Counted from the stretch's first letter, positions 39,959 through 59,559 are shown. The stretch is 64,000 nt of DNA from Candidatus Bathyarchaeota archaeon (GCA_963775465.1 CAVZIW010000003.1:96001-160000); one strand, 5' to 3'. The notes: generated by a model from the letters alone, not told the origin. Program-made: numbers and translations.

Positions 39959-39976
39959 CGCTTTGAGGTTTATTGT

Positions 39977-40741
39977 ATGAAAACTTTGGTTACTGTTGGT
40001 CGTGGCGGAACAGGAAAATCAAGTTTCACCTCCCTTATGGCCAAATGCTTCATAGAAGCGGGCATATCGCCGATTCTTCTTGTTGACGCAGATCCTGACC
40101 AAAACCTTGCTGAAATGCTTGGAGTAGACCTAAAAGAGGCAGGAAAATCAACAATAGCTGATCTCATCGTGAGTACCTTCATCGAGAAAGGCGGTACAAC
40201 TGTTGGTGTTCCTCCAACCCAACGCATTGAGAGCCGTATTTGGGAAAAAGGTCTCTACGAAGGCAAGAACTTTGATTTTATGGCTGTTGGCACAAAATGG
40301 GTGGAAGGCTGCTATTGTATGCCAAACTCGGCGCTCAAGAACGCCTTGGGCTCTCTAACAAAGAACTACAAATACGTGCTTGTCGATTCACCCGCGGGGC
40401 TAGAGAACCTAAATAGACGTATAACCTCGGAAGTCAACGACATCTTTGATATTCTTGATCATTCGAAGAAATCTCAAGATCATGTCAGACGAGCCTACAA
40501 AATAGCTAAAGAAGTTGACATGAAATTCGAAAACTTTTACATAGTTGGCGGTTACCGTTTCCCTAACGAATTGGGCAAGCAGGCTGAGGCTGACTTGAAA
40601 TTCAAATACTTAGGAAAGATCAACGCTGATGACCAACTAGACGAGTATGTTCTCGACGGAAAAAACCTTTTAGAGCTTTCAAACGACAACCAAGCTTACC
40701 TCTCAGTGAAACAAATCCTCAAAAACTTGGGTTACGTATAA
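39977..40741 (+). CDS. Second CooC/AcsF-like maturation ATPase
   Basis: GRGGTGKS, DADPDQNL, EGCYC, DSPAGLENLNR. Confidence 0.88.
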   Translation: MKTLVTVGRGGTGKSSFTSLMAKCFIEAGISPILLVDADPDQNLAEMLGVDLKEAGKSTIADLIVSTFIEKGGTTVGVPPTQRIESRIWEKGLYEGKNFDFMAVGTKWVEGCYCMPNSALKNALGSLTKNYKYVLVDSPAGLENLNRRITSEVNDIFDILDHSKKSQDHVRRAYKIAKEVDMKFENFYIVGGYRFPNELGKQAEADLKFKYLGKINADDQLDEYVLDGKNLLELSNDNQAYLSVKQILKNLGYV

Positions 40742-43224: not shown

Positions 43225-43230
43225 TCATGA

Positions 43231-43779
43231 ATGTCGTGTGAACCATGGCAATGTTCAGAAATAGCTGCCACTAAAAAAGCAAACCCCATTCAAAAACCCG
43301 AGATAGCAGTAGCAATGATCAAAAGAGCCGCCCGCCCCCTACTTATTGTTGGAAGTAACGCTACTCAACGTTGGATGGAAGGTCGACAACTGATCGATTA
43401 CCTCATCGAATTCGCTAACGCTTCTAAAGTTCCGGTGTTAGCCACAGCTCACATGGTCGGTGAATTCCTAAAACGAGGGTATACTCCTGCAAGTTTCATG
43501 ACCGCGATGGACATAGGTCAAAGAATTGTTGACCCAACCTGGCAGGGTATCGACGGAAAAGGTCACCCAGATCTTGTTATATTCGTTGGCTTGCCTTACT
43601 ATATGGAAGCACTCATCCTTTCGGGACTCAAACACTTCGCACCAGACCAAAAGACAATGACCATCGACAACCTTTATCATGCACATGCAAGCTGGTCTTT
43701 TCCAAATGCAAGCCTAGAGGATTGGGCTTCAAATCTCAAAGTAATGACATCAAAATTTGAAAATAATGGAGGAAATTAA
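43231..43779 (+). CDS. cdhB: CODH/ACS epsilon subunit
   Basis: AMIKRAARPLLIVG, WQGIDGKG, SGLKHFA, ASWSFPN. Confidence 0.93.
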   Translation: MSCEPWQCSEIAATKKANPIQKPEIAVAMIKRAARPLLIVGSNATQRWMEGRQLIDYLIEFANASKVPVLATAHMVGEFLKRGYTPASFMTAMDIGQRIVDPTWQGIDGKGHPDLVIFVGLPYYMEALILSGLKHFAPDQKTMTIDNLYHAHASWSFPNASLEDWASNLKVMTSKFENNGGN

Positions 43780-43782
43780 AAA

Positions 43783-45195
43783 ATGTCAATGTTTAAAGAT
43801 ATCCCTGTTGAAGTTGGCGTAATCTACGAAGGAGAACGTATCCGAAGAAACGACATGCAAATCGAACTTGGCGGACCAACAGTCAAACAAAAGTTTGAAT
43901 TAGCAAAAGTAAAACCCATGGATCAGATCGAAGATGGCAAAATCACCATCATCGGTCCAGATATTAAAGACATGAAAGAAGGCGGCGCATATCCCCTTGG
44001 CATTCTTGTTGAAGCGGCAGGAGCAAAACTCGATGCAGGTCTTGAAGGTGTCATAGAAAGACGTATTCACGGTTACCTAAACTACATTGAGGGCTTTATG
44101 CACTTGAACCAACGTTATGACATCTGGATACGACTGGGCAAAAAATCTTTCCAAAAAGGCTTAAACAGCTTTGAAGCAATCGGCAAAGTTCTCTTCCGCT
44201 TATTCAAAAGTGAACTACCAATAATTGAAAAAGTGCAAATTACGTTCATAACAGACACCTCAAAACTAGACGAGCTATACCCAGAAGCAGTCCAAGCTTA
44301 CGAGGCACGAGATGCAAAAGCAAGAGGTCTCAAAGACAGTGAAGTTGATACATTCTACGGATGTGCACTCTGCCAATCATTCGCACCAAGCCACGTTTGT
44401 GTCATCACACCACAAAGATACAGTAACTGTGGCGCCATCAGCTGGTTTGACGGTAAAGCTTCCGCAAGCATCGATCCCAAGGGTCCAGTATTCGCAATTC
44501 CAAGAGGCGAAATGATCAACGAAGAAAAAGGCGAATTTAGTGGTGTTAACGAAGCAGCCAAGACACGTAGCATGGGTGAAGTTAACAAAGTATGGCTCTA
44601 CACAGCCTTTGATCATCCACACACTTCATGCGGATGCTTCGAGGCAGTAGCATTCTACATCCCAGAAGTCGACGGACTAGGTGTGGTCCAAAGAAACTTC
44701 AAAGGCGCAACCGTAAACGGCTTACCTTTCAGCACCATAGCAGACTCCGCAGCAGGCGGACGACAAATCGACGGATTCCACGGAATGTCCATAGAATACA
44801 TGCGAAGCAAGAAATTCTTTGCAGCAGACGGTGGTTGGAATCGCATTGTCTGGGTGCCTAAAGAAGTTAAAGATCGCGTTAAAGATTTTATCCCCGCAGA
44901 CATCGTTGATAAAATCGCAACTGAAGAAGATGCAAAAAACGTTGATGAACTCAAAGCTTTCCTCAAAGCAAAGAACCACCCAGTGGTTGCCAAATGGGAA
45001 ACAGAAGCAGCACCAGAAGCAGAAACAGCAGCAGTCCAAATATCCGAGGAAGCAGCAGGCACTATGATGCCAGTTGCAACAGCAGGCTCACTTCCAATAA
45101 TGGCAGGCGGATTCAAAATAATACTCAAAGACGCAAAAATTTACGCGAACAAAGTTATCATAACAACCGTCAAAGACAATAAAGACAAACGGTGA
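43783..45195 (+). CDS. cdhC: Acetyl-CoA synthase (ACDS beta subunit)
   Basis: YEGERIR, ERRIH, HLNQRYDIW, CALCQSFAP, CGAISW, HTSCGCFE. Confidence 0.97.
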   Translation: MSMFKDIPVEVGVIYEGERIRRNDMQIELGGPTVKQKFELAKVKPMDQIEDGKITIIGPDIKDMKEGGAYPLGILVEAAGAKLDAGLEGVIERRIHGYLNYIEGFMHLNQRYDIWIRLGKKSFQKGLNSFEAIGKVLFRLFKSELPIIEKVQITFITDTSKLDELYPEAVQAYEARDAKARGLKDSEVDTFYGCALCQSFAPSHVCVITPQRYSNCGAISWFDGKASASIDPKGPVFAIPRGEMINEEKGEFSGVNEAAKTRSMGEVNKVWLYTAFDHPHTSCGCFEAVAFYIPEVDGLGVVQRNFKGATVNGLPFSTIADSAAGGRQIDGFHGMSIEYMRSKKFFAADGGWNRIVWVPKEVKDRVKDFIPADIVDKIATEEDAKNVDELKAFLKAKNHPVVAKWETEAAPEAETAAVQISEEAAGTMMPVATAGSLPIMAGGFKIILKDAKIYANKVIITTVKDNKDKR

Positions 45196-45201
45196 TATTC
45201 G

Positions 45202-46428
45202 ACGACGCACCACGATACAGACAAAAAAAAAGACGCTGAAGGCCTGAAACTAAGCGACGACTTACTTGCAGCCCTAGCAAAATTCCAGACAATCGAACTG
45301 GAAGACTTTCAACTTGACGCTAAAGAACTAGAAATCATCTTCGAAGCAGGTGCAGCAGGACAATTAATGCCAAAACTAAAGCTTCCAACAGCTATTACAG
45401 GTGGAAAACCAACTAGCCTGCTCCAAGCTTCTTTCTTACCCCCTATCGAAACCTATCCCAACAAAATCACCGAAGTAAAACTTGGGGCAACCAAAAGCGA
45501 AGGCGGCACACGCGGCAGATCACTTACTATAGGCGGAGAAGTCTCTCCTGCTTTCTACACTTTTGAAAACCCAATGCCACACAAACCAGTGGTTACATTA
45601 GACGTTTTCGACATGGAAATCCCATTGTCTAAAGCAGTCAAGATGCACGTTAAAGATGTAATTGGTGACCCGGCAGCATGGGCAAAACTTGCAGTTGAAA
45701 AATTCGGTGCAGACATGGTTACAATGCACTTAATCAGTGTAGACCCACTTCTCAAAGATGCGTCACCCAAAGAAGCATGCAAAACAATAGAAAAAGTCCT
45801 ACAAGCCGTAAACGTGCCACTAGTTATCGGGGGATGCGGAGACCCAGTTAAAGATACGGCAGTCTTCGAAGAAGTATGTGCTCAATTCCCAGGAGAACGG
45901 TTTCTAATCAGTTCAGTCACAAGGGATATGGATGTAGAAAAATGCGCAAAATTCATCAAAAAAGCAGGCCACGCCATACTCTCATTCACACCCATGGACC
46001 TTAACCTAGCACGTGAACTTAACAGGCGCCTCTACGACTTTGTTGCAAGAGAGGACATCGTTATGGACTTGACGACTGCCGCCTTAGGATACGGCTTAGA
46101 TTACGCGTTCACAAACATGGAGCGTGCAAGAATGGGTGGCTTAATGGGCGATTCTGAACTTGCGCACCCGATGTCGTCAGGTACAACTAACGCTTGGGCA
46201 GCCCGTGAAGCATGGCTCAAAATGGGCGCTGAATGGGAACCGCGTGAACTCAGAGGTCCCCTCTGGGAAGTAACAACGGCTATAACCCTGTTACTAACAG
46301 GCGTAGACTTGTTTATGATGATGCATCCCGCTGCAGTAAAAACCCTCAAAGATGTAACCAATTATTTAACAAGCGGTAAAAAAGCAGATCCAACCAAATA
46401 TGCAAGTTGGGTCAAAGTAAAAGCTTAA
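45202..46428 (+). CDS. cdhD: Corrinoid Fe-S protein small (delta) subunit; N-terminus extends upstream of the first ATG
   Basis: GGTRG, DVFD, TAALGYGLDY, NAWAAREAW, MMHP; open frame upstream encodes KLSDDLLAALAKFQTIELEDF. Confidence 0.93.
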   Translation, partial: TTHHDTDKKKDAEGLKLSDDLLAALAKFQTIELEDFQLDAKELEIIFEAGAAGQLMPKLKLPTAITGGKPTSLLQASFLPPIETYPNKITEVKLGATKSEGGTRGRSLTIGGEVSPAFYTFENPMPHKPVVTLDVFDMEIPLSKAVKMHVKDVIGDPAAWAKLAVEKFGADMVTMHLISVDPLLKDASPKEACKTIEKVLQAVNVPLVIGGCGDPVKDTAVFEEVCAQFPGERFLISSVTRDMDVEKCAKFIKKAGHAILSFTPMDLNLARELNRRLYDFVAREDIVMDLTTAALGYGLDYAFTNMERARMGGLMGDSELAHPMSSGTTNAWAAREAWLKMGAEWEPRELRGPLWEVTTAITLLLTGVDLFMMMHPAAVKTLKDVTNYLTSGKKADPTKYASWVKVKA

Positions 46429-46434
46429 GGAGAT

Positions 46435-47868
46435 ATGACACAGATGAGCGAGAAAAAGAAAGCTGGACTAAAAGAATTAAGCCCAATAGACGTTTACAAA
46501 CTTCTCCCGAAAACTAATTGCAAAGAATGCGGTCAAGACAACTGCATGGCCTTCGCTACCAAAATTGTAAACCGCGAAATCGAAATTGACAGTTGCAAAC
46601 CCCTCCTTAAACCAGAAAACGCCAAAAACTATGCCAAACTCAAAGACCTCCTGAAACCTGCAGTCAAAGAAATTACCGTCGGCGTTGGAGACAAAGCCAA
46701 AAAAATCGGCGGAAAACTCGTTATGTACCGCCACGAATTCACTTACAAGAACCCAACAGCCATAGCAATTGACGTAACCGACGAAATGCCTGAAAACGAA
46801 GTTGTAACCCGCGTTCAAAAAGCAGAAAACTTCAGCTTCGAATATATAGGCAACACATTAAGACTCGATATGGTTGCAGTTCGATGTACTAGCGAAGACC
46901 CAGACAAATTCAAATCTTGTGTTAAGAAAGTATCGGAATCAACAAAGTTACCTATGATACTTTGCACCTTAAACCCCACCATAGCTGAAGCAGGCTTAAT
47001 GGCGGCACCCAAAGCACGACCATTACTTTTCGCAGCAACCACTGAAAACTGGAAAGATATGGCAGAACTCGCCTTAATGTACAACTGTCCCATAGTTGCA
47101 TCTGCACCAAACGATTTGAGCACACTTGTGTCCTTAGCAAAAACATTGATCGCTTATGGCGTAACCGACATAGTACTAGACCCTGGTACCTTCCCAGCTG
47201 AAGGAATAGGCGACACCATAAACAACTTCACAATGTTACGACGCGCAGCAACCAAAGGCGGAGAAGAACTTGCAGGCTTACCACTACTCGGTGTTCCAAT
47301 GGTTGCATGGACAGACAAAGGAGACACCGCAGAAGACCTGATCAAATGGCGCGAATCATACATCGCATCAATGCTTGTAGTTCGCTACGCAGATGTACTC
47401 ATAATGCACGGTAATGATGGTTGGTCTTTACTTCCAATAACAGTACTAAGACAAAACATCTACACAGATCCCCGCAAACCCGTCGCAGTTGCACCAGGCC
47501 TCAAAGTCTTCGGCGCCCCCGATGAAAACTCACCAGTCCTCTTCACCTCAAACTTCGCTTTAACCTACTATACAGTTGCCTCAGACATCGAAAGCAACAA
47601 AGTCAACGCCTACCTAATCGTTGTTGAAACAGAAGGCTCAGCCATAGACAGCGGAGTGGCAGGACGCAAACTAACCGCCGAAAAAGTAGCAGACGCAATA
47701 AAAGAAAGCAACATCGAAAGCAAAGTAAAGCATAAGAGAATCATCAGTCCAGGCAAAGCCTCACGCATAAGCGGGGAAATTGAGGAACTCAGCGGCTGGA
47801 AAGTCCTTGTTGGTCCACGCGATAGCAGTGAGATACCCAAGTATCTCATAGAGAAATGGCAACCATAA
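46435..47868 (+). CDS. cdhE: Corrinoid Fe-S protein large (gamma) subunit
   Basis: LPKTNCKECGQDNCMAFA, YRHE, RQNIYTDPRKP, NFALTYYTV, VGPRDSS. Confidence 0.96.
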   Translation: MTQMSEKKKAGLKELSPIDVYKLLPKTNCKECGQDNCMAFATKIVNREIEIDSCKPLLKPENAKNYAKLKDLLKPAVKEITVGVGDKAKKIGGKLVMYRHEFTYKNPTAIAIDVTDEMPENEVVTRVQKAENFSFEYIGNTLRLDMVAVRCTSEDPDKFKSCVKKVSESTKLPMILCTLNPTIAEAGLMAAPKARPLLFAATTENWKDMAELALMYNCPIVASAPNDLSTLVSLAKTLIAYGVTDIVLDPGTFPAEGIGDTINNFTMLRRAATKGGEELAGLPLLGVPMVAWTDKGDTAEDLIKWRESYIASMLVVRYADVLIMHGNDGWSLLPITVLRQNIYTDPRKPVAVAPGLKVFGAPDENSPVLFTSNFALTYYTVASDIESNKVNAYLIVVETEGSAIDSGVAGRKLTAEKVADAIKESNIESKVKHKRIISPGKASRISGEIEELSGWKVLVGPRDSSEIPKYLIEKWQP

Positions 47869-48176
47869 ACCAACTCCTTCCTTTATTTTATTTTTAACTA
47901 ACATATCTATTAGCAATTTCTTTATAATCCGAACACGCTTTAGAATGATGATTTTATGACTGTTCTAACTTCTTATTTTAAAATAACTGAGAGAAAGGTT
48001 GAAAAGCACGCAAACACCGCGACTTTCTAATTTTCTAATATTTCTCACCTTTCGAATGTATGTTGCAATAATCTGTATTATGTTAAAAACATCATGAATT
48101 CTACTTAAATTTGTACTAAAGCCGTATAAACATCTTCTTTCAATACATGAGTACTAATGGTAGAAGGGACTGAAAA

Positions 48177-49658
48177 ATAGGCTGCGGTATCTTTGGTGCA
48201 ATAAACTACGAGAAACAACCAGTTTTTCCCTACGTTTACTGGGGTTTACGTGCTCAAAATCATCGAGGTCACCAATCTCATGGTTTCCTCACAAGCAACA
48301 ACAACCAATTCTTTACCTATAAAGCTCTTGATTTAGTTCCGCGTCTAAAGACAACCACTATAAACGAATGGTTCAGTCGCCTTCCAGGCTCAATAGGCAT
48401 CGGAAATGTGCGATATACAACCTCAGGAAAATGCGATGATGTCTCCATAATTGATGGCACCCAACCCGTCGTAGCATCTGCAGGTGGAATAAAGCTCGCA
48501 CTTTCGTTCAACGGCAATATCGTTAACACTTTGCCTCTTAGAAAAGAAATTAATCAAAACTTCGAAAACTTTCTCTACAACTGTGACTCAGACATCGTCT
48601 GCCACAAAATGCTCCTTGAGTTAAAAAATGGCAAAACTTTGGAGGATGCAGCCAGAAACGTTATGGAGAATTTGGATGGCGCTTTCTCCGTAACTGGACT
48701 AACTGGCAATGGTGAATTTTTCGCTTTCAAAGACCCCCATGGAATAAAGCCTCTGTGCGCGGGACATGACCCCAAAAGTAAAACCTATGCCTTTTCCTCC
48801 GAAACCGTAAGCCTTGATATGAACAGTTTTGAACGAGATTTTGAACTCACCCCAGGTGAGCTGGTAATCGCTTCCGAAAATGGATTCAAACGTACACAGC
48901 TAATCGATAATCCTCGCGAAGCTTTTTGCTGTTTTGAATACGCTTATTTTGCCCGACCTGACTCACGTTTCGACGGCAGATTTGTTTATGAAATACGTGA
49001 AGCCTTCGGAAGAAATCTCGTAAAAGAGTTCCCTGATGTTGTTAAGGACAGCGACATCATAATGTCGGTGCCTGAAACTGGGGACGACCCTGCCATGGGC
49101 GTACATGAAGCGTCAGGTCTGCGTTGGGAACGTTCATCAAGACGACACCGCTATGTAACTGAACGGGCCTTCATACTTCTTAACAATGAACGATACTCAA
49201 CCATAGATAAAAAAATCAACATCCTTGGAAGCAAAGTCGCCGGCAAACGAGTTATAGTAGTTGAAGACAGCGTAGTTAGAGGTGACACAACCAAAGTTAT
49301 AATAGAAAAACTCCGTAAAGCAGGCGCCAAAAAAGTTTACCTCTTCGTAACTTTCCCCCGTATCATCGGACCATGCTTTTACGGTATTGACATGTCAACT
49401 TACGGTCAACTGGTTGGCTCTAGACATGATCCAGAAGAAATAGCCAAAATTATCGGTGCCGACGGCGTATGTTATCAATCACTTGAAGGCTTAATTCAAG
49501 CCACTGGACAAACCGAAGGGCAACTCTGCTTGGCTTGTGTAACTGGCAAATATCCGACGTCATGCGCGCAAAGAATGGCAGATGTTATGAAAAAACGTTT
49601 CATTCAGGGCTACGAAGAAAAAGGCAGAATTTACGAATCTGAGGAAATTCAGCCGTAA
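48177..49658 (+). CDS. purF: Amidophosphoribosyltransferase; N-terminus (GCGIFG...HRG) lies upstream of the ORF-track start
   Basis: CGIFG, QNHRGHQSHG, VRYTTSG, FEYAYFARPDS, VEDSVVRGDT, PCFYGIDM, CLACVTGKYP. Confidence 0.93.
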   Translation: MGCGIFGAINYEKQPVFPYVYWGLRAQNHRGHQSHGFLTSNNNQFFTYKALDLVPRLKTTTINEWFSRLPGSIGIGNVRYTTSGKCDDVSIIDGTQPVVASAGGIKLALSFNGNIVNTLPLRKEINQNFENFLYNCDSDIVCHKMLLELKNGKTLEDAARNVMENLDGAFSVTGLTGNGEFFAFKDPHGIKPLCAGHDPKSKTYAFSSETVSLDMNSFERDFELTPGELVIASENGFKRTQLIDNPREAFCCFEYAYFARPDSRFDGRFVYEIREAFGRNLVKEFPDVVKDSDIIMSVPETGDDPAMGVHEASGLRWERSSRRHRYVTERAFILLNNERYSTIDKKINILGSKVAGKRVIVVEDSVVRGDTTKVIIEKLRKAGAKKVYLFVTFPRIIGPCFYGIDMSTYGQLVGSRHDPEEIAKIIGADGVCYQSLEGLIQATGQTEGQLCLACVTGKYPTSCAQRMADVMKKRFIQGYEEKGRIYESEEIQP

Positions 49659-49710: not shown

Positions 49711-51123
49711 ATGGAAAAGATAGGAGTACTGTTGATTTCTTATGGTGCACGAGAAGTTGCTATGGCCGACACACTGCTTCGGAGTCAAAACTACCAGGTT
49801 GAGCTTTATATTGTTGACAAACAACGCAACCCCTTCAACGCAAACCACTCCATCAAACAAGTTGTGATTCCAAGTCTTAATATCCAGGAAACATGCAAAT
49901 TCGCTCAAGCCAACAAGAATAACCTTGACTTTGTTTTAGTCGGTTCAGAAAAACCAATAATTGATGGTGTGCGCGATCTAATCGAAAAAGAGACTGGCAT
50001 ACCCGTGATTTGTCCAATGAAAGCTTACGCAATCGAGAAAAGCAAGGTTGAGCAGCGTTTGCTCTTTGAAGAAATTGCGCCAGAAGCCAATCCGCGATTC
50101 AAAGTTTTTGACCCAGCTGATTATAAGCATAGAGACGTAAAAAGTGACGTTTACAAATGGCTTGATGAATTAGGCAACCAAGCTGTTGTCAAACCCGATA
50201 AGCCAGCTTTAGGAAAAGGTGTCGGTGTGTGGGGCGACCACTTTGTTAACCGAGAGCAGCTTTTTGAGTTTTTCATGTCTAACTTTCTGTACAGTTCAGT
50301 ACTAATCGAAGAAAAAGTTCCTGGGGAAGAATCCAGCTGCATAGGATTCTCCGACGGCAAGCACTTTATTGCTTTGCCGGATACTCGGGACTACAAGCGT
50401 GCATTCGACGATGATAAAGGTCCCAACACGGGCGGAATGGGCTCCTATAAAGACATCACCGATTATCTGCCTTTTTTAACTGCAGCCGACCGTGAACAAG
50501 AAATCGCTTTAGCCGACAAGATCTTTAAAGGCTGGAAAGCAAAAATCCCCGACGATAAAGCCCTTCGAGGGGTCCCGTTATACCTCGCGTTTATGCATAC
50601 AGGCAAAGGAATTAAGGTTCTAGAAATTAACAGTCGTCCAGGCGACCCCGAAATTATGAACCTTCTTCCTATAATCAAAGATGACTTTGTCGATGTATGT
50701 CTCAAGATGGTGGATGGCAGCCTCAAGGGTGTTGCCACAGATAAGTCTGCTACAGTTTTAACCTACAAAGTGCCTGCAGACTATGGTGGTTACCTGCAAG
50801 AATTCCCAGATAAAGTTGATAAATCCTCAATTGATGGTCCCGTCGACTTGATCAAGGCAGAAGCGCTCTCTGAAAAATTCGGCGATAACATTCGTATTTA
50901 TCCTGGCTCTATGGAACTTCGTGAAGGCAAAAATTATGCGTTAAAATCCCGTGCCATCGGAATCTTAGGTATTGCTGACAATATTGAAGAAGCTCGCCAA
51001 ATTAGCCTAGAAGGTGCTCAAGCAGTCAGGGGTGGTGCACTCTGGAACCGTACCGACATTGCAGCAAAACAACACATCCAAAGAAGCATCGCCCATATGG
51101 AGCTGTTGAGGCGCAAGGTTTGA
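49711..51123 (+). CDS. purD: Phosphoribosylamine-glycine ligase
   Basis: YGARE, GKGVGV, EEKVPGEESS, DYKRAFDDDKGPNTGGMGS, EINSRPGDPE, RTDI. Confidence 0.93.
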   Translation: MEKIGVLLISYGAREVAMADTLLRSQNYQVELYIVDKQRNPFNANHSIKQVVIPSLNIQETCKFAQANKNNLDFVLVGSEKPIIDGVRDLIEKETGIPVICPMKAYAIEKSKVEQRLLFEEIAPEANPRFKVFDPADYKHRDVKSDVYKWLDELGNQAVVKPDKPALGKGVGVWGDHFVNREQLFEFFMSNFLYSSVLIEEKVPGEESSCIGFSDGKHFIALPDTRDYKRAFDDDKGPNTGGMGSYKDITDYLPFLTAADREQEIALADKIFKGWKAKIPDDKALRGVPLYLAFMHTGKGIKVLEINSRPGDPEIMNLLPIIKDDFVDVCLKMVDGSLKGVATDKSATVLTYKVPADYGGYLQEFPDKVDKSSIDGPVDLIKAEALSEKFGDNIRIYPGSMELREGKNYALKSRAIGILGIADNIEEARQISLEGAQAVRGGALWNRTDIAAKQHIQRSIAHMELLRRKV

Positions 51124-52196
51124 AACGAATTTTTGTTTCCGACTGCGAAGGGCCCATCTCAAAAAATGACAACGCGTTTGAGTTGACGGAAAATTTTATT
51201 CCAAACGGAGACAAACTCTTTGCAAACATAAGCAAGTACGACGATGTTCTAGCAGATGTTTTGCGTAAACCAAACTACTGCGCTGGAAGCACACTTAAAT
51301 TAATTTTACCTTTTTTCAAAGCCTATGGAATAACAGATGCACAGGTGGAAAAGTTTTCAGCCCAAAATATCATCTTAATCACGAACACGAAAACAACGCT
51401 AAGTTACGTGCAATCCATAACCTCTTCCTTTATTGTAAGCACCAGCTATGAACACTACATCAAAGCTCTCTGCAAAGCAGTGGATTTCCCCTACAAGAAC
51501 ACCTATTGCACCAAAGTGAACCTCAACAAATTAGGTATCACTCCACAAGAAAAGGAACGCCTCAAAGAAATAGCTCAAGAAATCACTCAAATGCCCCTAA
51601 TTGACATTCCTCCCAACACGAAAACTCCCAAAGACTTTTCTGCTAACGATAGGATGTCAATTCAAAGATTAAACGAAATTTTCTGGGACATAATCCCAAA
51701 AATGTTTGTGGGAAAATTCCTTCTCGATGTCGTAACAGTTGGGGGGGAACAGAAAGCTGACGCTATCCGTGACTCAACTAAACGATTATGTTCCAAGTTA
51801 TCAGATGTCATGTATGTGGGTGATAGCATAACAGATGGGGAAGCTTTCAAACTCGTCCGTAGCAACGGAGGTCTAAGTGTATCGTTTAACGGTAACGGTT
51901 ATGCACTTAAGAACGCAGAAGTTGCGGTAATGTCAGAAAGCAACCTTGTCATTGCTGTCATTGCTGACTTATTTTGCAAGTTAGGCACAAAGGAAAGTCT
52001 CAAAATATTCAATTCTTGGAACATAGAAGCGCTAAAGGATAAGGTGGACACGATCTTACTGAAAAAACTTTTAGCACAAAGCAATGGGTTGCCGAAAGTT
52101 CAAATAGTTACGGCAGAAAATATGGAATCACTCGTAGAAGAGAGCTGTGAATTCCGAAAAAAGGTTCGCGGAACGGCAGTAGGGAGACTTGGATAA
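51120..52196 (+). CDS. HAD-superfamily hydrolase of the EhaR-like family
   Basis: FVSDCEGPISKNDNAFEL, VSTSY, GGEQK, YVGDSITD, SFNGN.YA. Confidence 0.75.
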   Translation: MKRIFVSDCEGPISKNDNAFELTENFIPNGDKLFANISKYDDVLADVLRKPNYCAGSTLKLILPFFKAYGITDAQVEKFSAQNIILITNTKTTLSYVQSITSSFIVSTSYEHYIKALCKAVDFPYKNTYCTKVNLNKLGITPQEKERLKEIAQEITQMPLIDIPPNTKTPKDFSANDRMSIQRLNEIFWDIIPKMFVGKFLLDVVTVGGEQKADAIRDSTKRLCSKLSDVMYVGDSITDGEAFKLVRSNGGLSVSFNGNGYALKNAEVAVMSESNLVIAVIADLFCKLGTKESLKIFNSWNIEALKDKVDTILLKKLLAQSNGLPKVQIVTAENMESLVEESCEFRKKVRGTAVGRLG

Positions 52197-53113
52197 TGGG
52201 TAAACCAGTAATTGAAGATACTTTCATAGAAACCTTTGCAGGAATATTTTGTCGAGTAATCGTGACTGCAGATGATGATGACACTCTTCGTCATGCTGCT
52301 GAGGATTCCACTTCTACGCCATCAGTAGTTATCGGTCGAACAGAGGGTGGAATTGAAAAATACCTTACCCCAAACGAAACTCCCGACAAACGTATTGGTG
52401 CGATTTTGCAGTTCTGGGGCGAAATAAATCCTAAAAAAACCTTCCAAGAGTCCTTAAACAAGTTTGAAACTGAGCTTTCTTATCGCATCCGTCAAGACAT
52501 CCTCGTAAAACCATTCACGGCAGTTTTTGACGCTTTGCCAAATCCCGCGGGCAAACTAGATATGATGGAAAAGGTTGGCCATTGCGGGGACGGGTTCGAA
52601 TGGATCGAGAAACGCCATGGAAGAGAAGTTATTGTTGTGCCCTTAATGGTTCCTGACTTTGTTATTGAGCGATGCTTAGGTTATTCCCGTGGTGTGATGG
52701 GTGGAAACTTTTGGGTAATGTGTACCACTAAGCACGCATTAAAAACAGCGGGGGAAAAAGCTTTAGATGCTATCCACCAAATTAGCGGTGTCGTAACGAC
52801 CTTTGACATTTGCTCCGCTGGCTCAAAACCTGAAACCCATTTTCCAAAGATTGGACCAACTACAAACCATCTCTATTGTCCCTCGCTTAGGACTCGGTTA
52901 GGAAAAGAATCCAAGGTTCCAGAGGGTGTCAAGTACATCGCTGAAATCGTTTATAATGGTGTATCATTGGCAGCAATCAAAGAAGCCGCGAAAGTAGGGA
53001 TAGCCGCTGTCTTAGATGTTGAAGGCGTTATGCGGGTTTCCGCTGGTAACTACGACGGAAAACTTGGGCAATACAAAATTCAACTCAAGGAGCTTTTCAA
53101 TGACAAAGTTTGA
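52196..53113 (+). CDS. Divergent formylmethanofuran:H4MPT formyltransferase-like protein (Ftr2/EhaS-like)
   Basis: IEDTF.E.F, ETPD.R.G, GDG.E, GGNF, TN..YCP, EIV.NG, SAGNY.GKLG retained; substrate-loop motifs differ from canonical Ftr. Confidence 0.85.
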   Translation: MGKPVIEDTFIETFAGIFCRVIVTADDDDTLRHAAEDSTSTPSVVIGRTEGGIEKYLTPNETPDKRIGAILQFWGEINPKKTFQESLNKFETELSYRIRQDILVKPFTAVFDALPNPAGKLDMMEKVGHCGDGFEWIEKRHGREVIVVPLMVPDFVIERCLGYSRGVMGGNFWVMCTTKHALKTAGEKALDAIHQISGVVTTFDICSAGSKPETHFPKIGPTTNHLYCPSLRTRLGKESKVPEGVKYIAEIVYNGVSLAAIKEAAKVGIAAVLDVEGVMRVSAGNYDGKLGQYKIQLKELFNDKV

Positions 53114-54014
53114 TGTAATAGGTTTTGGCGCTCTTAACGTAGATACTCTTCTAAAAGTTGACAAAATTGCTGTCGCAGAAGAGGAAAGTTACATACGTGA
53201 TTACACAGAGGCATGCGGCGGTTCAGCTGCAAACACTATGGTAGCGCTGGCTCGTTTAGGTTGCAAAGTGGGCTTCATAGGTAAAGTCGCGAATGACCAC
53301 GAAGGTAGCCTTCAAATTGATTGCTTCAAAACTGAAGGTGTAGACACAGGAGGAATTATCCAAACAAACAAAGGCAAAAGTGGAATGGTGCTTGGCTTAG
53401 TAGATAAAAAAGGTGCACGAGCACTCTACATCAACTCAGGTGTTAACGACCTAATTGAGCCACGCGAATTAAAGTGGGAATATGTTTCCCAAACGCAATT
53501 TCTTCACCTCTCATCATTTGTAGGCGAAAAATCTTTTCGAACACAAAAAAAACTCTTAACATCCTTGCCAAGTAACATCAAAATCAGCTTTGACCCAGGC
53601 TCAGTGTATGCGCAAAAAGGCTTCGCTGCGATTGAACCGATAATACAAAACTCCTATGTTATGATGCCAAACGCGTTGGAGCTTGAACTTTTAACAGGCG
53701 AAAGTAATTATCCGAAAGGCTCAAGGCATCTGTTAGATATGGGTGTTAAAATTGTTGCTGTCAAGCTTGGTAAGAAGGGTTGTTACATAACCAACGGTCA
53801 AGAAAAGCGTACTATTGAACCTTTTAGAGTTCCAGTAGCTGATACTACAGGTGCAGGTGACGCTTTTAACGCAGGCTTTTTGTACGGCTTAATCAACAAT
53901 AAACCTTTAGCTGAATGTGGTAAGCTTGGAAATTTTGTAGCTTCCCAAAGCATAATGAAAATGGGTGCCAGAGCTGGCTTGCCTTATGAAAAGGATTTAG
54001 AACTTTTTGGTTAG
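53100..54014 (+). CDS. PfkB/ribokinase-family carbohydrate or nucleoside kinase
   Basis: GALNVD, GGSAANT, FDPG, PN..E, DTTGAGDAFNAG; ATG at 53100 overlaps the ftr-like gene by 14 nt. Confidence 0.9.
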   Translation: MTKFDVIGFGALNVDTLLKVDKIAVAEEESYIRDYTEACGGSAANTMVALARLGCKVGFIGKVANDHEGSLQIDCFKTEGVDTGGIIQTNKGKSGMVLGLVDKKGARALYINSGVNDLIEPRELKWEYVSQTQFLHLSSFVGEKSFRTQKKLLTSLPSNIKISFDPGSVYAQKGFAAIEPIIQNSYVMMPNALELELLTGESNYPKGSRHLLDMGVKIVAVKLGKKGCYITNGQEKRTIEPFRVPVADTTGAGDAFNAGFLYGLINNKPLAECGKLGNFVASQSIMKMGARAGLPYEKDLELFG

Positions 54015-54815
54015 TTCCTCGATTATACTTTGGAATATTAGTTTGCCGTCGCCGTATTGCCGTTTAAGGTTTTCTCGTGTCCAGTCCGGTTGTTGCCACC
54101 AGTACATGGCTCGCTCAGGGTGGGGCATTAAGCCGAATATATTGCCTTCTTTGTTGCATATCCCTGCGATGTCATGGAATGATCCGTTAGGATTGGATGG
54201 GTATTTGCCGTTGGCTTCTTCGCCTTTTTTGGCACAATAGCGAAAAACCAACATGTCATTATCCTCGAGTTTCTTTAGGAGCAACTGTTCTTTGTTTTTA
54301 GGGAAGAGCAGTCGCCCTTCTCCATGTGCTATCGGGAGTCGTATTGTTTTTCCCGCCGGGATTTTGCTTGTAAAAACACATTTACCTTGATTTTCTTGTT
54401 TCAAATAAACCCATTCACATTTGAAACCTGCTGGCTCGTTGGTTGTGAGTGTAGCTTCAGGGTAAATGCTTATGCCATTAAAACCTGGAAGCAATCCATA
54501 TTCTACGAGAATTTGAAAGCCATTACAGATGCCGAGTATTGGTCTGCCTTCATCAACAAATTTTTCCATTTCTTTGCCTAATTGAGTTGAGAGATGCCTA
54601 GCGAAGATGACGCCTGAGCGCACGTAATCACCAAACGAAAATCCTCCCGGAAACACTAGAATGTTGTAATCAAGCAGATTTTTTCTTTTGCTCAGCTCGT
54701 TAAAGTGGACTATTTCTGCTTTCACGTCGAGCTCTGTAAATGCCCGTTGCGTCTCTACATCACAGTTCGTTCCGCCAACACGTAAAACACAGACTTTGAT
54801 GTCTTCTATCTTCAA
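53997..54815 (-). CDS. purQ: FGAM synthase glutaminase subunit
   Basis: GTNCD, PGGFSFGD, GICNGFQ, HGEG, NPNGS, MPHPER. Confidence 0.96.
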   Translation of the reverse strand: MKIEDIKVCVLRVGGTNCDVETQRAFTELDVKAEIVHFNELSKRKNLLDYNILVFPGGFSFGDYVRSGVIFARHLSTQLGKEMEKFVDEGRPILGICNGFQILVEYGLLPGFNGISIYPEATLTTNEPAGFKCEWVYLKQENQGKCVFTSKIPAGKTIRLPIAHGEGRLLFPKNKEQLLLKKLEDNDMLVFRYCAKKGEEANGKYPSNPNGSFHDIAGICNKEGNIFGLMPHPERAMYWWQQPDWTRENLKRQYGDGKLIFQSIIEELTKKF

Positions 54816-57199
54816 TTCAGTCCTTCCTCAGGGCTAAGGGTTTTCTTCCAACTGTTTCTAAGTGTTTCAAGAGAGGCGTCAATAACAACTTTTCCGTTCA
54901 AACCTTTGATTATTATTTTCTGTTCTTCGGTTACTTTGCCAATCAATGAGCAGACTTTGCCTTTCATCAAATCCTCAAAATCTTCTTTGTCTGCTTCTGT
55001 GACTTCAACGATGAAGCGGCTGTTAGATTCAGAAAATAGCACGAAATCATTTCGAGTTAATTCTTTGCCTGAAACCTTTTTGAGTTCAATTTCTAAGCCT
55101 AAACCACCTGCAAACGACATCTCTGCTACCGCAACTGCTAGTCCACCTTCAGAGATGTCATGGCATGATTTAATTAAGCCTCTATCAATTGCAGAGGTGA
55201 CCGCTTTGAAAGTTCGTTTGGCTTTGGCGCCTCTGACTTTGGGCACGGATGCTCCGAGGTAGCCTTTAAGTTTGTAGTATTCTGATCCCCCTAGCTCGTT
55301 GAAGGTGTCGCCAACAATGTATATACAGTTGCCCACAGTTTTAAGATCTACACTGATAGTATTTTGGATGTTGGGAATTACACCAATCCCCGTTATGAGC
55401 AGAGTAGGTGTCACGGGTCCCATTGGGGATTCGTTGTAAAGGCTGTCCTTGCCAGAAATAAACGGCGTCTTAAACGCAACAGCAAAATCGTAGCATGCCT
55501 CACAAGCTCGAACTAGAGAGCCTAACCGTTCTGGTTTTTCCGGATTACCCCAAGTGAAGTTATCCAAAAGCGAAATCCTCCTTCCGCCCACAGCGACGTT
55601 GTTGCGTATCGCTTCATCTATTGCCGAAGCTGCCATCCAATAAGCATCGATTTTGCCATAGTTAGGGTTCATGCCGCAGGAAATCGTTAGCCCTTTAAAT
55701 GAATCATCCAGGGGTTTGAGAACTGCCGCGTCGTTTGGTCCAGCATAATCGCCTTGCAAGGGCTTAAGGAGTGTGTTACCTTTGACTTCATGGTCATAGG
55801 TGCGTATCACAGATTCTTTGCTCGCAATGTTGGGGGCTGAAAGTAATCTTATTAGGGTTTCATTCAAATTAGTTGGTTCAGAAAATTCTGGTTCTTTGAG
55901 AATATTGTTTTTAATGGTTGCAACTTTGGAGCTTTGACAAGGATTGAACATAAACTCCATTTCGATATCACTAACTATGTCGTCTTTGTACTTGAGTCGG
56001 AGGCGTCTCTCGGGAATCAAAGTTCCAATTGCTGTGGCAACAACGTCTTCTTTTTCAAAAACTTCCATAACTCTCTCCAAGTTTTCAGGTGGGATTACTA
56101 ATAGCATGCGTTCTTGGGATTCGGATAGATAGATTTCCCAAGGGGCTATGCTCTGGTATTTCAAAGGTACTTTGGCAAGGTCTACTGATACACCGCAGTT
56201 GAATCGTTCAGCGGTTTCGCCTACCGCAGAAGATAAACCTCCACCGCCTATGTCTGTTACCGCCGAACCCAGCTGAAGGTCTCGAATCTCCACAACTGCA
56301 CGTTTAACTTTCTCTTCCTCGATGGGGTCAGCAATTTGAACAGCTGGGCGCGAGATCTCCTCAGATTTTTCGGTGAGTTCTGCTGAGGCAAAAGTCACCC
56401 CGTGGATGCCGTCGCGTCCTGTCTTGCCGCCTGCCAAAACCACAAAGTCGCCGACCTTACCATTTTTGGCGTATTTTTTTAGGGGTAACAACCCGATACA
56501 GCCACAGTAAACGATAACGTTTCCAGTATAACTGTCATCGAAGTATATGGCGCCATTGACGGTGGGGATGCCCATATTATTTCCATAAGCGCTGATGCCT
56601 GCTGTTACACCCATATATACGTACTTTGGATGTTTAACACCTGCTGGCAGCTTGTTGTAATCGAAATCTAATGGGCCAAAACCCAAAACGTCAGTGCATG
56701 CGATCGGGTCAGCCCACACACCCAAGATGTCTCGAATAACACCACCAACACCGGTAGCTGCACCCCCAAATGGTTCTACTGCAGAGGGGTGATTGTGAGT
56801 TTCCACTTTTGCTGCTATACCATACCCCATATCAAATTTCACGATACCCGCGTTATCTTCGAAAACGCTAACGCACCATGGCGCCCTTATTTGTTTGGTA
56901 GCTTTGGCAATGTAAGTTTTAAAGAGACTTTGGATTTCTTTGTTGTCGAGTTCAATTTTGCCTTTAAAGGTTTTGTGACAACAGTGTTCACTCCAAGTTT
57001 GGCTTATTGTCTGCAGTTCCACATCAGTTGGATTACGTTTTTCTTTTTTGAAATAAGCCTGAATGACTTTGAGTTCTTCTGCACTAAACCCAAGCGAAAG
57101 TTCACTGTTTATTTCGGCAAGCTGCTCTTCGGTGGCTCTTGCTATTGAAAACTCCAATATTGAGTTACTTTTGCGTTGAGTGATTAGTTTAGGGTTCAT
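54812..57199 (-). CDS. purL: FGAM synthase synthetase subunit
   Basis: WSEHC.HK, ETHNHPS, GGAATG, DGIHG, SESQER, HDISEGG. Confidence 0.97.
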   Translation of the reverse strand: MNPKLITQRKSNSILEFSIARATEEQLAEINSELSLGFSAEELKVIQAYFKKEKRNPTDVELQTISQTWSEHCCHKTFKGKIELDNKEIQSLFKTYIAKATKQIRAPWCVSVFEDNAGIVKFDMGYGIAAKVETHNHPSAVEPFGGAATGVGGVIRDILGVWADPIACTDVLGFGPLDFDYNKLPAGVKHPKYVYMGVTAGISAYGNNMGIPTVNGAIYFDDSYTGNVIVYCGCIGLLPLKKYAKNGKVGDFVVLAGGKTGRDGIHGVTFASAELTEKSEEISRPAVQIADPIEEEKVKRAVVEIRDLQLGSAVTDIGGGGLSSAVGETAERFNCGVSVDLAKVPLKYQSIAPWEIYLSESQERMLLVIPPENLERVMEVFEKEDVVATAIGTLIPERRLRLKYKDDIVSDIEMEFMFNPCQSSKVATIKNNILKEPEFSEPTNLNETLIRLLSAPNIASKESVIRTYDHEVKGNTLLKPLQGDYAGPNDAAVLKPLDDSFKGLTISCGMNPNYGKIDAYWMAASAIDEAIRNNVAVGGRRISLLDNFTWGNPEKPERLGSLVRACEACYDFAVAFKTPFISGKDSLYNESPMGPVTPTLLITGIGVIPNIQNTISVDLKTVGNCIYIVGDTFNELGGSEYYKLKGYLGASVPKVRGAKAKRTFKAVTSAIDRGLIKSCHDISEGGLAVAVAEMSFAGGLGLEIELKKVSGKELTRNDFVLFSESNSRFIVEVTEADKEDFEDLMKGKVCSLIGKVTEEQKIIIKGLNGKVVIDASLETLRNSWKKTLSPEEGLN

Positions 57200-57447
57200 T
57201 TCTCTTCAACGACGCTTATGGTGTAATTGTCTTTGGTTGGATTAGCTAATAGACGCTTGCTCATTTCTTCTGCTTTTGCTTTGACTTCTTCAGGCGAGGA
57301 TGCATCTAAGGTAATAATATAGACTTTGCTGACATCTACAGATGCTACTTTGTAACCGAGTTCAACGAGTAATCGCGCTGTGGTTTCACCTTCAGGGTTA
57401 CTGTGCCCTGGTTTAAGGCTAACCTCAATTTTGGCAACATATTTCAT
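57196..57447 (-). CDS. purS: FGAM synthase PurS subunit
   Basis: V.LKPG..PEG, LLANP; position directly upstream of purL. Confidence 0.92.
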   Translation of the reverse strand: MKYVAKIEVSLKPGHSNPEGETTARLLVELGYKVASVDVSKVYIITLDASSPEEVKAKAEEMSKRLLANPTKDNYTISVVEEK

Positions 57448-57505: not shown

Positions 57506-58588
57506 TTACGTTAGAACCATATGTCTATTTCGATAATTGATTTCTACAACGCGATCTTTGTTTGTAACTCTGCCTATTTGTTCAGGATTCACATCGCATT
57601 GTTCAAGCACACTTATCGCTTGATCGATATCCGTTTTGTCCACAATTATTCCAAATCCCCATCCCATGTTAAATGTTTTAAACATCTCCTCATCCGTTAT
57701 TGTGTATCCCAGTTCGGCGGCTGTTTTCTGGATTAAGTTAAAGACAGGTTGCGGCTTAAAGTTGTCAAATTTGAAACCTATTTGGGGTGAATAGTTGGCT
57801 AAGTTATTAAATTTGGTAAATGCATCTCCCGTTATGTGCACGGCGGCTTTGACTTTTACTTGACGAACAAGTTTGAGAATTGGTTTAACATAAATTTTGG
57901 TTGGCTCCAAAACTTCAAGCGCAACTTCTCTATTCAAGCCCTCTGGGACGTCGTCTGGTGAATATTTTCCACCCCACTGTTTGAAGAGTATCTTTCGCAC
58001 CAGCGTAATACCGTTGCTGTGAACGCCACTGCTGGATAGCCCAATTATTGGATCATCTGGCTCTATGTTCTCTCCTGTTATGATTTCTTGGCGTTCCACT
58101 TTGCCCACGGAAGCCACAACCATATCAAATCCAGCATTTTGTGTAATGCCCTTTATGATTTCCGCTACGTCGCCTGTTTCTCCTCCTGTGACTGGGCACT
58201 CAGATAGATGAGCGCCTTCAATGATGCCTTTTAACCATGCATTTACTAATTTGGGTTCGCTGGCTTGCGCATGAATATTGTCGGCAATTGCTAAAGGTTT
58301 AGCGCCCGAACGGATGACATCATTGACTGCCATGGCAACTGCGTCAATTCCTATGGTGTCGTATTTCTGGGCTAATTCAGCGATTAGAACCTTTGTGCCA
58401 ACACCCTCAATTACAAGGTCCAAAAATGTGTTTTCGCCTACTGCAAAGATGTTGCCGTAAGGTAGATGAAGTACTCCGTCAAATTGGCTATGTCTGTATG
58501 TTTCCTGTAGGTTTTTCAGGTTTTTTTTGGATTCGACGCGTTGTTTACGGTTCACGCCTGCATCGTCATAGGTGTAGTTTTTGGACAT
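57506..58588 (-). CDS. purM: AIR synthetase
   Basis: YDDAGV, EGVGTK, IGIDAVAMAVND, GGET, SSGVHSNG, HITG, TFNMG. Confidence 0.94.
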   Translation of the reverse strand: MSKNYTYDDAGVNRKQRVESKKNLKNLQETYRHSQFDGVLHLPYGNIFAVGENTFLDLVIEGVGTKVLIAELAQKYDTIGIDAVAMAVNDVIRSGAKPLAIADNIHAQASEPKLVNAWLKGIIEGAHLSECPVTGGETGDVAEIIKGITQNAGFDMVVASVGKVERQEIITGENIEPDDPIIGLSSSGVHSNGITLVRKILFKQWGGKYSPDDVPEGLNREVALEVLEPTKIYVKPILKLVRQVKVKAAVHITGDAFTKFNNLANYSPQIGFKFDNFKPQPVFNLIQKTAAELGYTITDEEMFKTFNMGWGFGIIVDKTDIDQAISVLEQCDVNPEQIGRVTNKDRVVEINYRNRHMVLT

Positions 58589-58719
58589 AGACACTTCTCT
58601 CCTTGTACGCTAAATGTGTAGTTTGCTGTCTGATAATTATTTTGTTTGCCATACTCTCAAAATCGTTAATATCCTTCTTTGTCATGGTAAAGTTTTTCTG
58701 CTTATTGGGTATTTAGACC

Positions 58720-59559
58720 TTGATTATTGTGCAAGTACCCAAATACCATATCTACATAGAATACTCAGAGACCGAAAAGTCTGGAATTCGTTTCAACGTT
58801 TCCCACGAAGAGCTTCTTCGCGTCTTTGCAACACCGTTCGCTGTTGGTCAACCCTTCTGGTTTATGGGCAGACTCCTTAGTCCTATTAAAGTCATTAAAG
58901 CTGTCCTTTTCTGGTCCTATGAAACAGCCGACAAACTAACTCTCCCCAACCATGAAAGCCTCGTAGTCGTAAAAGACAAGAAATACCTCATCGAAAGCAT
59001 TCTTCAAAATAAAGTAAAAGGCGTCTACCCCTGCACTGAGGAATTTTTGCAGCCCGAAAAAATCCGGGTTCTCGCTCAACCAATTGTTGCATCTTCAAGG
59101 ATTGCACTTCAAAGAATTTTTGTTGTTTCTGGTTCTGATGATCATATGAAACAAGCCGTATTGGGGGCTTTGGCCAAACTCAAAATAGTGCCTGTGCTAA
59201 CTTGTGAAGAGCCAAGCCAAGGAAGAAAAATAGTGGACCGGTTCAATGACTATGAAGATATGGCTTTCGCGGTGGTTTTGCTATCCCCTGATGATTTTGT
59301 CTATTGCAGAAATGAGACAACTACGCAACGCAAACTCAAACCACAGCAGAATGTGGTTTTCCAGCTCGGTTTCCTTCTAGGCAAGCTTGGCAAAAGCAAT
59401 GTTTTTGTTTTGTTAAGGGAATGCGAAAACTTTCAAGTCCCTGATTTCGAAGGTTTAAAAACTGTAGCCTTCGATGATCGAGGCAGTTGGAAACTTACCC
59501 TCATTCGAGAATTATCTAGTCACGGATTTAGAATCGAAGCCGCCAGAATCGTAAAGTAG
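58720..59559 (+). CDS. Protein with C-terminal TIR-like nucleotide-binding domain (Cap12/Pycsar-type TIR), apparently degenerate
   Basis: IFVVSGSD, FAVVLLSPDD, QNVVFQLGFLLGKL, W...L.REL. Confidence 0.78.
   Translation: MIIVQVPKYHIYIEYSETEKSGIRFNVSHEELLRVFATPFAVGQPFWFMGRLLSPIKVIKAVLFWSYETADKLTLPNHESLVVVKDKKYLIESILQNKVKGVYPCTEEFLQPEKIRVLAQPIVASSRIALQRIFVVSGSDDHMKQAVLGALAKLKIVPVLTCEEPSQGRKIVDRFNDYEDMAFAVVLLSPDDFVYCRNETTTQRKLKPQQNVVFQLGFLLGKLGKSNVFVLLRECENFQVPDFEGLKTVAFDDRGSWKLTLIRELSSHGFRIEAARIVK

Follow-up and report, generated by a model that had tools for sequence, protein, structure and literature searches.

A second Ftr-type protein encoded in an archaeal purine operon is a candidate for the missing glycinamide ribonucleotide formyltransferase

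The window analysed here is a 64,000-nucleotide stretch of a Candidatus Bathyarchaeota archaeon genome (GCA_963775465.1, CAVZIW010000003.1:96001-160000; contig C3:96001-160000). It contains a purine biosynthesis locus in which the genes for the first two steps of the pathway are followed by three genes encoding a haloacid dehalogenase (HAD)-like protein, a paralogue of formyl-methanofuran:tetrahydromethanopterin formyltransferase (Ftr), here called Ftr2, and a kinase of the PfkB/ribokinase family. On the plus strand, purF (amidophosphoribosyltransferase, step 1; 48177-49658; GATase and PRTase domains, TIGR01134 at 292 bits) and purD (glycinamide ribonucleotide (GAR) synthetase, step 2; 49711-51123; GARS_N, GARS_A and GARS_C, TIGR00877 at 226 bits, under the cut-off of 288) precede this triad. 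It consists of the HAD-like gene of the AF1437/EhaR family (51120-52196, 358 aa; Hydrolase_3, E=2e-5), the gene for Ftr2, an EhaS-type protein and the candidate GAR formyltransferase (52196-53113, 305 aa; FTR and FTR_C domains, NF002554), and the EhaT-type kinase gene (53100-54014, 304 aa), all on the plus strand. Facing them on the minus strand are purQ, purL and purS, which encode the glutaminase subunit (53997-54815; NF002252 at 317 bits, above cut-off), the synthase II subunit (54812-57199; TIGR01736 at 698 bits) and a further subunit (57196-57447; TIGR00302 at 70 bits) of formylglycinamidine ribonucleotide synthase (step 4), and purM (aminoimidazole ribonucleotide synthetase, step 5; 57506-58594; TIGR00878 at 274 bits). 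The domain and profile searches recover the open reading frames and families given in an earlier description made by a model from the DNA alone (hereafter the sequence-only reading), and the three overlapping junctions that it claimed are exact when read base by base. The TTG start of the HAD-like gene overlaps the purD stop in TTGA (51120-51123), the HAD-like and Ftr2 genes meet in TAATG (52194-52198), and the Ftr2 and kinase genes overlap by 14 nt (53100-53113), the Ftr2 stop lying at 53111-53113 and the kinase ATG at 53100 after an upstream AAGGAG. The convergent kinase and purQ genes share 18 nt (53997-54014). The HAD-like, Ftr2 and PfkB genes are translationally coupled, lie directly after purF-purD and converge on purQ-purL-purS-purM; the flanks of the triad are purD and purQ, and no hydrogenase gene is adjacent. 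Neither PurN nor PurT, the enzymes that convert GAR to formylglycinamide ribonucleotide (FGAR) in step 3, was found within the 64 kb, as the sequence-only reading had stated.

Ftr2 has both Ftr lobes at full length (PF01913 at ~140-142 bits, PF02741 at 178 bits). It passes the cut-off of the Ftr subfamily model NF002554 (326.7 bits, cut-off 297) and fails that of the canonical Ftr equivalog TIGR03119 (227.8 bits, cut-off 292.6), and it falls outside the clade of characterised enzymes. Pfam and NCBIfam profile searches gave no Formyl_trans_N (PurN) or ATP-grasp (PurT) match in any of the triad proteins. A tree of 49 sequences (eight derived from genomes, the loci L070-L110 without L095, and L140) divides the family into Ftr1 and Ftr2, with a support of 100 on each side of the split in the Shimodaira-Hasegawa-like approximate likelihood ratio test (SH-aLRT). 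The Ftr1 side holds the canonical copy of the same genome, other archaeal Ftr and planctomycete FhcD-type proteins, and the Ftr2 side holds sequences from Bathyarchaeia, Methanobrevibacter, Methanophagales/anaerobic methanotrophic archaea of group 1 (ANME-1), Alkanophaga, Archaeoglobaceae, Hydrothermarchaeota, Promethearchaeota and Borrarchaeum. Measured against the window protein, Ftr2-type matches have 46-100% identity and at least 237 bits, and Ftr1-type matches 34-43% identity and at most 211 bits; among the relatives listed, Ftr2 identity is ~80%. Forty alignment columns are conserved across both clades, including E250 of the window Ftr2; its counterpart in 1M5H and 1M5S is the Glu of EIVING (EIV(I/Y)NG in the solved Ftr structures). 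We take this Glu to be the catalytic residue, Glu245 in M. kandleri numbering. Signature residues of Ftr2 that are absent from Ftr1, drawn from an 82-sequence Ftr2 set made up mostly of Bathyarchaeia, include W74, R99, C130 and G220-P221.

The sequence-only reading had proposed a search of the full genome for purN, purT, purH, purP and a separate canonical ftr, and in this assembly (2.42 Mb, 15 contigs) the last two were found. The canonical Ftr (Ftr1) is encoded on contig C12 and scores 189 bits to PF01913, versus ~140-142 for the window copy; FwdA (809 bits) and Mch (356 bits) are present as well. A second pur cluster, purE-purC-purP-purP with two tandem PurP genes, lies outside the window at C8:11898-15900, and purB was also found. 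PurN (best match 20 bits), PurT (best match 48 bits, inside a 1139-aa frame), PurH and PurO were not found in this 92%-complete genome. Because PurF, PurD, PurLQS, PurM, PurE, PurC, PurB and PurP are present, there is a candidate for every step of the pathway except step 3 and inosine monophosphate (IMP) cyclohydrolase, the latter an enzyme described by Brown 2011 (PMC3261824) as unidentified in Crenarchaeota.

The gene order is widely shared among relatives. We compared 60 Bathyarchaeia-type loci, of which 58 are distinct, one being a duplicate and one too frameshifted to call. HAD-Ftr2-PfkB is contiguous in 53 of the 58, and since the arrangement recurs to this extent it is not due to chance. 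The PfkB gene is adjacent to Ftr2 in 57 and the HAD-like gene in 54; purD lies no more than 2.5 kb away in 49, and purQ and purL are nearby in 38, several of the misses being loci cut by contig ends. In Borrarchaeum, an Asgard archaeon, a single strand carries purF-purD-HAD-Ftr2-PfkB-purL-purQ-purM, and identity to the window proteins is only 28-42%. The triad is thus linked to pur genes in nearly all Bathyarchaeia-type loci and in an Asgard genome, and the contrary case named by the sequence-only reading, a purN or purT elsewhere in the genome together with a triad unlinked to pur genes in relatives, is not what we found. The triad is also intact in two Methanobrevibacter-type loci. The triad-bearing lineages, including Methanobrevibacter and Bathyarchaeia, form one Ftr2 subclade with a support of 98, which suggests that the three genes moved together. 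Two peculiarities of the compared records deserve mention. L046, L069 and L095 have the gene order of the window locus with many broken frames across all pur genes, which points to indel errors in assembly and not to pseudogenes. Content and record title are at odds in three further records: L071, from a 'Bacteroidaceae' bin, has an eha operon and a Methanobrevibacter-like Ftr2, and the other two, L078 and L042, are a 'Nitrosotalea' contig with an ANME-1-like Ftr2 and a 'Nitrososphaerota' contig with a Bathyarchaeia pur-triad locus. Mis-binning or loose naming is the probable cause.

The position after purD is informative in genomes with other gene content. Two genomes of other Thermoproteota families (G073 and G097) have purF-purF-purD followed by a PurT-like gene, and in G073 this run faces purM-purS-purL-purQ, an architecture like that of the window. 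In family f7 of the Bathyarchaeia (G069 and G037) the order is purF-purD-PurN-like, the last gene overlapping the end of purD and encoding a 290-aa Formyl_trans_N protein in which the NLHP and LDEGP segments (catalytic His and Asp) are kept; f7 appears to have changed over to a folate-type route at the same locus. The post-purD position is thus taken by a PurT-like gene, a PurN-like gene or the triad, which are unrelated to one another; the first two are of known step-3 enzyme types.

The distribution of Ftr2 across genomes follows the same division. In an even sample of 201 Thermoproteota genomes, 52 of which carry any Ftr, PurN was scored at E<=1e-5 and PurT at E<=1e-20, and none of the 22 genomes with Ftr2 has a match to either at these thresholds. 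Among the 29 genomes with Ftr1 only, 11 have PurN over the cut-off, three a sub-threshold PurN-like gene and ten PurT or a PurT-like gene (24 of 29 together); the remaining five comprise four genomes without PurD and one that is 72% complete. We use "PurT-like" where PurT is the best family and the score is under the NCBIfam cut-off: such sub-threshold matches (233-255 bits) score 255-268 bits to NF006766 versus ~84 to PurK. Family f6 is divided by genus, g17 having Ftr2 and g16 a PurT-like gene. One genome with an Ftr2 fragment and a PurT-like gene (G105) was dropped from the 22: the fragment is in frame with a thermosome at a contig end, and this metagenome-assembled genome (MAG) is 88% complete and 4% contaminated. 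In other phyla the sample consists of 26 Ftr2 genomes reached via named loci, 25 of them with PurD and 21 with neither PurN over the cut-off nor PurT. Among Archaeoglobaceae MAGs, two with Ftr2 have no PurT, and one in which PurT is present (466 bits) carries only Ftr1 and is without the HAD-like gene. In Methanobacteriota, the phylum of Methanobrevibacter, a comparison of Ftr2 and PurT gave an Ftr2-type match in 150 of 151 genomes and PurT at E<=1e-30 in none. The expected anti-correlation of the triad with purN and purT is therefore borne out, in that Ftr2 is complementary to them in Thermoproteota and largely so in other phyla.

The absence of a recognised PurN or PurT from several archaea that use tetrahydromethanopterin (H4MPT), which the sequence-only reading had mentioned, is indeed in print. 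Brown 2011 (PMC3261824) reports no purN or purT in two Archaeoglobi, four Methanobacteria (printed "Methanomicrobiales") and M. kandleri. One section of Chadwick 2022 (PMC9012536) reports Ftr2 in ANME-1, ANME-2a/2b, Archaeoglobales, M. kandleri and Methanothermobacter, and a separate section states that ANME-1, Archaeoglobales and Methanobacteriales are without PurN and PurT and that an unidentified enzyme must exist. The lineages reported without a GAR formyltransferase are thus lineages reported with Ftr2, and the two statements stand unconnected in these sections. A literature search, with most subscription journals outside it, found no publication linking Ftr to GAR or FGAR. The triad has also been described from another direction. 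Passages of Kaster 2011 (PMC3087415) report that Ftr2 is co-transcribed with eha in Methanobacteria, and that EhaS and EhaT were once annotated as Ftr and ribokinase and judged unlikely to act so owing to this co-transcription; the text names the Ftr homologue EhaS at one point and EhaT at another. The text of Adam 2022 (PMC9635834) contains none of the terms EhaR, EhaS, EhaT, purine and Ftr. The identity of the triad with ehaR-ehaS-ehaT given in the sequence-only reading also holds: the look-alike cluster of the HAD-like protein in the Atlas is named EhaR, and locus L071 runs from a gene for an NADH-dehydrogenase-like membrane subunit through the small and large [NiFe] hydrogenase subunits and two polyferredoxins to HAD-Ftr2-PfkB, an arrangement that, judged by its gene content, is the end of an eha operon.

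Of the two partner proteins, the HAD-like protein resembles AF1437 of A. fulgidus (PDB 1Y8A; E=1.9e-28, Foldseek template modelling (TM) score 0.81), a member of the same family that is a structural-genomics entry without an assigned function. Its predicted model (predicted local distance difference test (pLDDT) 94.7) has a Rossmannoid HAD fold with a cap, as in phosphatases of the subfamily IB-like type; Foldseek ranks 1Y8A first, followed by phosphoserine phosphatases (SerB; TM ~0.45-0.49), ThrH and MtnX. Motif I reads D-x-E-G-P without exception, in place of DxDG(T/V), so that the Asp nucleophile is kept and the second Asp is replaced by Glu, and motifs II, III and IV are intact across phyla; because of this combination the protein looks like an active but atypical HAD enzyme. 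Enolase-phosphatase E1 also carries D-x-E. The kinase is assignable to PfkB only (182 bits): the families that score highest, ribokinase and ribose-1-phosphate kinases, all stay under cut-off (ribokinase TIGR02152 gives 169 bits against a cut-off of 299.65), and alignment with a solved ribokinase shows that it retains the N-terminal N/D motif and the GAGD motif. The HAD-like gene is present in 24 of the 201 Thermoproteota genomes, namely all 22 with Ftr2 and the two PurN-like f7 genomes, and outside this phylum in 24 of the 26 Ftr2 genomes and in none of three Ftr1-only genomes. Where it stands away from Ftr2, it lies beside purF and PfkB (Promethearchaeota genome G214), near purD (G220, G221, G224 and G085) or next to PfkB (Archaeoglobaceae genome G217). 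Across phyla the genes for the two partners keep company with Ftr2 or with purD and purF, which marks them as sharing one functional module with Ftr2, tied to the PurF/PurD/step-3 part of the pathway.

We regard Ftr2 as the best candidate so far for the missing archaeal GAR formyltransferase, and we put at about 0.65 the probability that it is the enzyme that formylates GAR or a close derivative in archaea without PurN and PurT. The support for this reading is comparative throughout (gene content, synteny, distribution and conservation), and the substrate, the formyl donor and the roles of the two partners are what we infer. The central claim of the sequence-only reading, that the triad is a one-carbon (C1)-carrier-dependent GAR transformylase module rather than a hydrogenase accessory, gains support from the same comparisons. 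In such a reaction the formyl group would come from the methanogen-type C1 pool, as formyl-methanofuran (formyl-MFR) or N5-formyl-H4MPT, and the glycinamide amine would occupy the Ftr site that takes the aminomethyl-furan amine of methanofuran. Formyl-MFR should be roughly isoenergetic with FGAR, and transfer from N5-formyl-H4MPT would need pull from later steps. With low confidence, we suggest that the partners remove a phosphate from the acceptor ahead of formylation and put it back once the formyl group is in place; their families and narrow distribution fit this role, and the fact that f7 retains both beside a PurN-like enzyme weakens it. In the full form of this idea, which we think doubtful, three enzymes would bypass step 3 by way of nucleosides: the HAD enzyme, with its D-x-E motif, would strip the 5'-phosphate from GAR, Ftr2 would formylate glycinamide riboside using formyl-MFR or N5-formyl-H4MPT, and the PfkB kinase would convert formylglycinamide riboside to FGAR, spending one ATP. 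This ATP cost would make the near-equilibrium formyl transfer irreversible. If the bypass operates, joint transcription with eha would, in Methanobacteria, link the anaplerotic hydrogenase to the drain of formyl groups into purines.

Several observations weigh against assigning step 3 to Ftr2. PurN is over the cut-off in five of the 26 Ftr2 genomes of other phyla (three Promethearchaeota and two uncultured archaea), and ANME-2a/2b, which have PurN, also carry Ftr2 according to Chadwick 2022 (PMC9012536); Ftr2 and PurN are therefore not strictly alternative. The scan of 151 Methanobacteriota genomes covers Ftr2 and PurT but not PurN. The genome counts include kin, which are not independent, and overstate the number of independent events. 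The triad of Methanobacteria ends a hydrogenase operon, not a pur operon (L071), and outside Bathyarchaeia, Methanobacteria and Borrarchaeum no pur gene lies in the available flank of 22 of 23 Ftr2 loci, many of them on short contigs. The f7 Bathyarchaeia (G069 and G037) keep the HAD-like and PfkB genes without Ftr2 and use a PurN-like gene, so that these two proteins are not tied to Ftr2 chemistry alone; in the same lineage FolD overlaps the PfkB kinase gene (G069; L177 4387-6295 and L178 7802-10041). Finally, a view cited in Brown 2011 (PMC3261824) holds that formyl-H4MPT does not work as a formyl donor.

The strongest competitor, which we nonetheless consider improbable, is that Ftr2 is a second, anabolic formyl-MFR:H4MPT isoenzyme that feeds or drains the H4MPT C1 pool (together with Eha in Methanobacteria), the purine link being indirect and the true GAR formyltransferase another protein. 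Ftr2 does pass the NCBIfam Ftr subfamily cut-off with the conserved core residues kept, it is co-transcribed with eha in Methanobacteria (Kaster 2011, PMC3087415; locus L071), and in other lineages it is mostly not beside pur genes and coexists with PurN in the five genomes noted above. However, an isoenzyme fails to explain why Ftr2 is absent wherever PurT, a PurT-like protein or PurN fills the slot after purD, or why none of the 22 Thermoproteota genomes with Ftr2 has PurN or PurT. It gives a non-methanogen with a canonical Ftr no reason to keep, within a pur operon, another copy that is 40% identical, and it leaves step 3 without a candidate.

Less probable again is a reading in which the two partner proteins act as a pair that supplies or salvages pentose phosphate for PurF and PurD (by converting, for instance, ribose or ribose-1-phosphate through a bisphosphate to ribose-5-phosphate) and Ftr2 formylates another amine. 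The best families of the kinase, sub-threshold as they are, would fit such a pair, as would the purF-HAD-PfkB arrangement of the Promethearchaeota genome, the HAD-PfkB pairs without a nearby Ftr2 and the retention of both partner genes without Ftr2 in f7. A general supply route would not, however, be as restricted as the HAD-like gene, which occurs in only 24 of the 201 Thermoproteota genomes, exactly those with a non-canonical step-3 gene. Least likely of all, Ftr2 would release formate from formyl-MFR or formyl-H4MPT as a PurU analogue and an ATP-grasp enzyme such as a PurP paralogue would formylate both GAR and aminoimidazole carboxamide ribonucleotide (AICAR): the two tandem PurP genes beside purE-purC and the need of PurP for formate (Brown 2011, PMC3261824) speak for it, but a formate supplier should co-occur with PurT rather than exclude it, the exclusion of PurN and PurT and the replacement in the slot are left unexplained, and a PurP paralogue was rejected as the missing step-3 enzyme, since the tandem pair is equally common in PurN- or PurT-bearing genomes and eight Ftr2 genomes have a single PurP-family match.

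Since Brown 2011, a core pathway has had a recognised gap at the GAR formyltransferase of Methanobacteria, Archaeoglobi, Methanopyrus and ANME-1, and Chadwick 2022 restated it. If Ftr2 fills this gap, it would represent a third class of GAR transformylase, unrelated to the other two, and a known fold would have gained a new function; it would also be the first enzyme of purine synthesis supplied by the methanofuran/H4MPT C1 pool. The eha-linked proteins EhaR, EhaS and EhaT would then have a function, as would AF1437 from structural genomics. Labelling results might be reconciled as well: purine C8 derives from acetate C2 in M. stadtmanae and not in M. smithii, which is called inconsistent in Brown 2011 (PMC3261824). 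A literature search on this labelling found nothing. Both results would fit a carrier-bound C1 pool that may draw on serine in one organism and on CO2 in the other. Current reconstructions of metabolism score Bathyarchaeia, ANME-1 and some Asgard archaea as without step 3 and would also be corrected.

Other features of the window merit a brief description. The purF reading frame opens at 48174 and ends at 49658, and it has no ATG, GTG or TTG ahead of the catalytic N-terminal Cys (K-I-G-C-G-I-F-G): the window reads TGA AAA ATA GGC TGC at 48171-48185, GTG 48408 is too late as a start, and the Cys is preceded only by ATA 48177. The codon at this position is ATG in a relative of the same genus (L011), ATA in L012, L031 and L032 and ATC in L013. 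The start is probably ATA 48177, which would make the Cys residue 3, and the ATA looks like a conserved non-canonical start codon. Directly upstream of purF lies a carbon monoxide dehydrogenase/acetyl-CoA synthase (CODH/ACS) cluster (40876-47868) with genes for a Prismane/CdhA-like protein, an epsilon subunit, CdhC and two CdhD-family proteins, one with an iron-sulphur (FeS) domain, and ahead of it are two genes for CooC/MinD-like ATPases (39179-40741). On the other side, between purM and a CLC chloride-channel gene (59719-61506), the plus strand encodes a 279-aa protein with a CAP12/Pycsar-type TIR effector domain (58720-59559, 78 bits), possibly a stand-alone defence effector. A 635-aa open reading frame on the minus strand (62044-63951) has no Pfam family at E<=0.001.

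Among characterised systems, Ftr2 is closest to canonical Ftr (PDB 1FTR/2FHJ of M. kandleri, 1M5H of A. fulgidus and 1M5S of M. barkeri), with which it has the two-lobe fold family in common (E=1e-50 to 1M5H over the full length). Unlike canonical Ftr, it belongs to a separate deep clade, lies inside a pur operon and is a second copy beside Ftr1. With PurN it has in common the slot after purD, occupied by the PurN-like gene in f7, and the proposed reaction would likewise be a cofactor-bound formyl transfer to the GAR amine; PurN, however, is unrelated in sequence and fold and uses N10-formyl-tetrahydrofolate as donor, whereas Ftr2 would use MFR- or H4MPT-bound formyl. With PurT it again has in common the post-purD slot (PurT-like in G073 and G097), and the two are complementary in distribution, but PurT is an ATP-grasp ligase acting on free formate and Ftr2 is without an ATP-binding domain. 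The nearest match to the triad as a whole is EhaR-EhaS-EhaT, encoded by the last genes of the Methanothermobacter eha operon, which are gene-for-gene homologues in the same order. In the relevant passages of Kaster 2011 (PMC3087415) these proteins are treated as hydrogenase subunits from co-transcription alone; unlike them, the triad of the window adjoins purD and purQ, and linkage to hydrogenase genes was seen only in the Methanobrevibacter-type locus L071.

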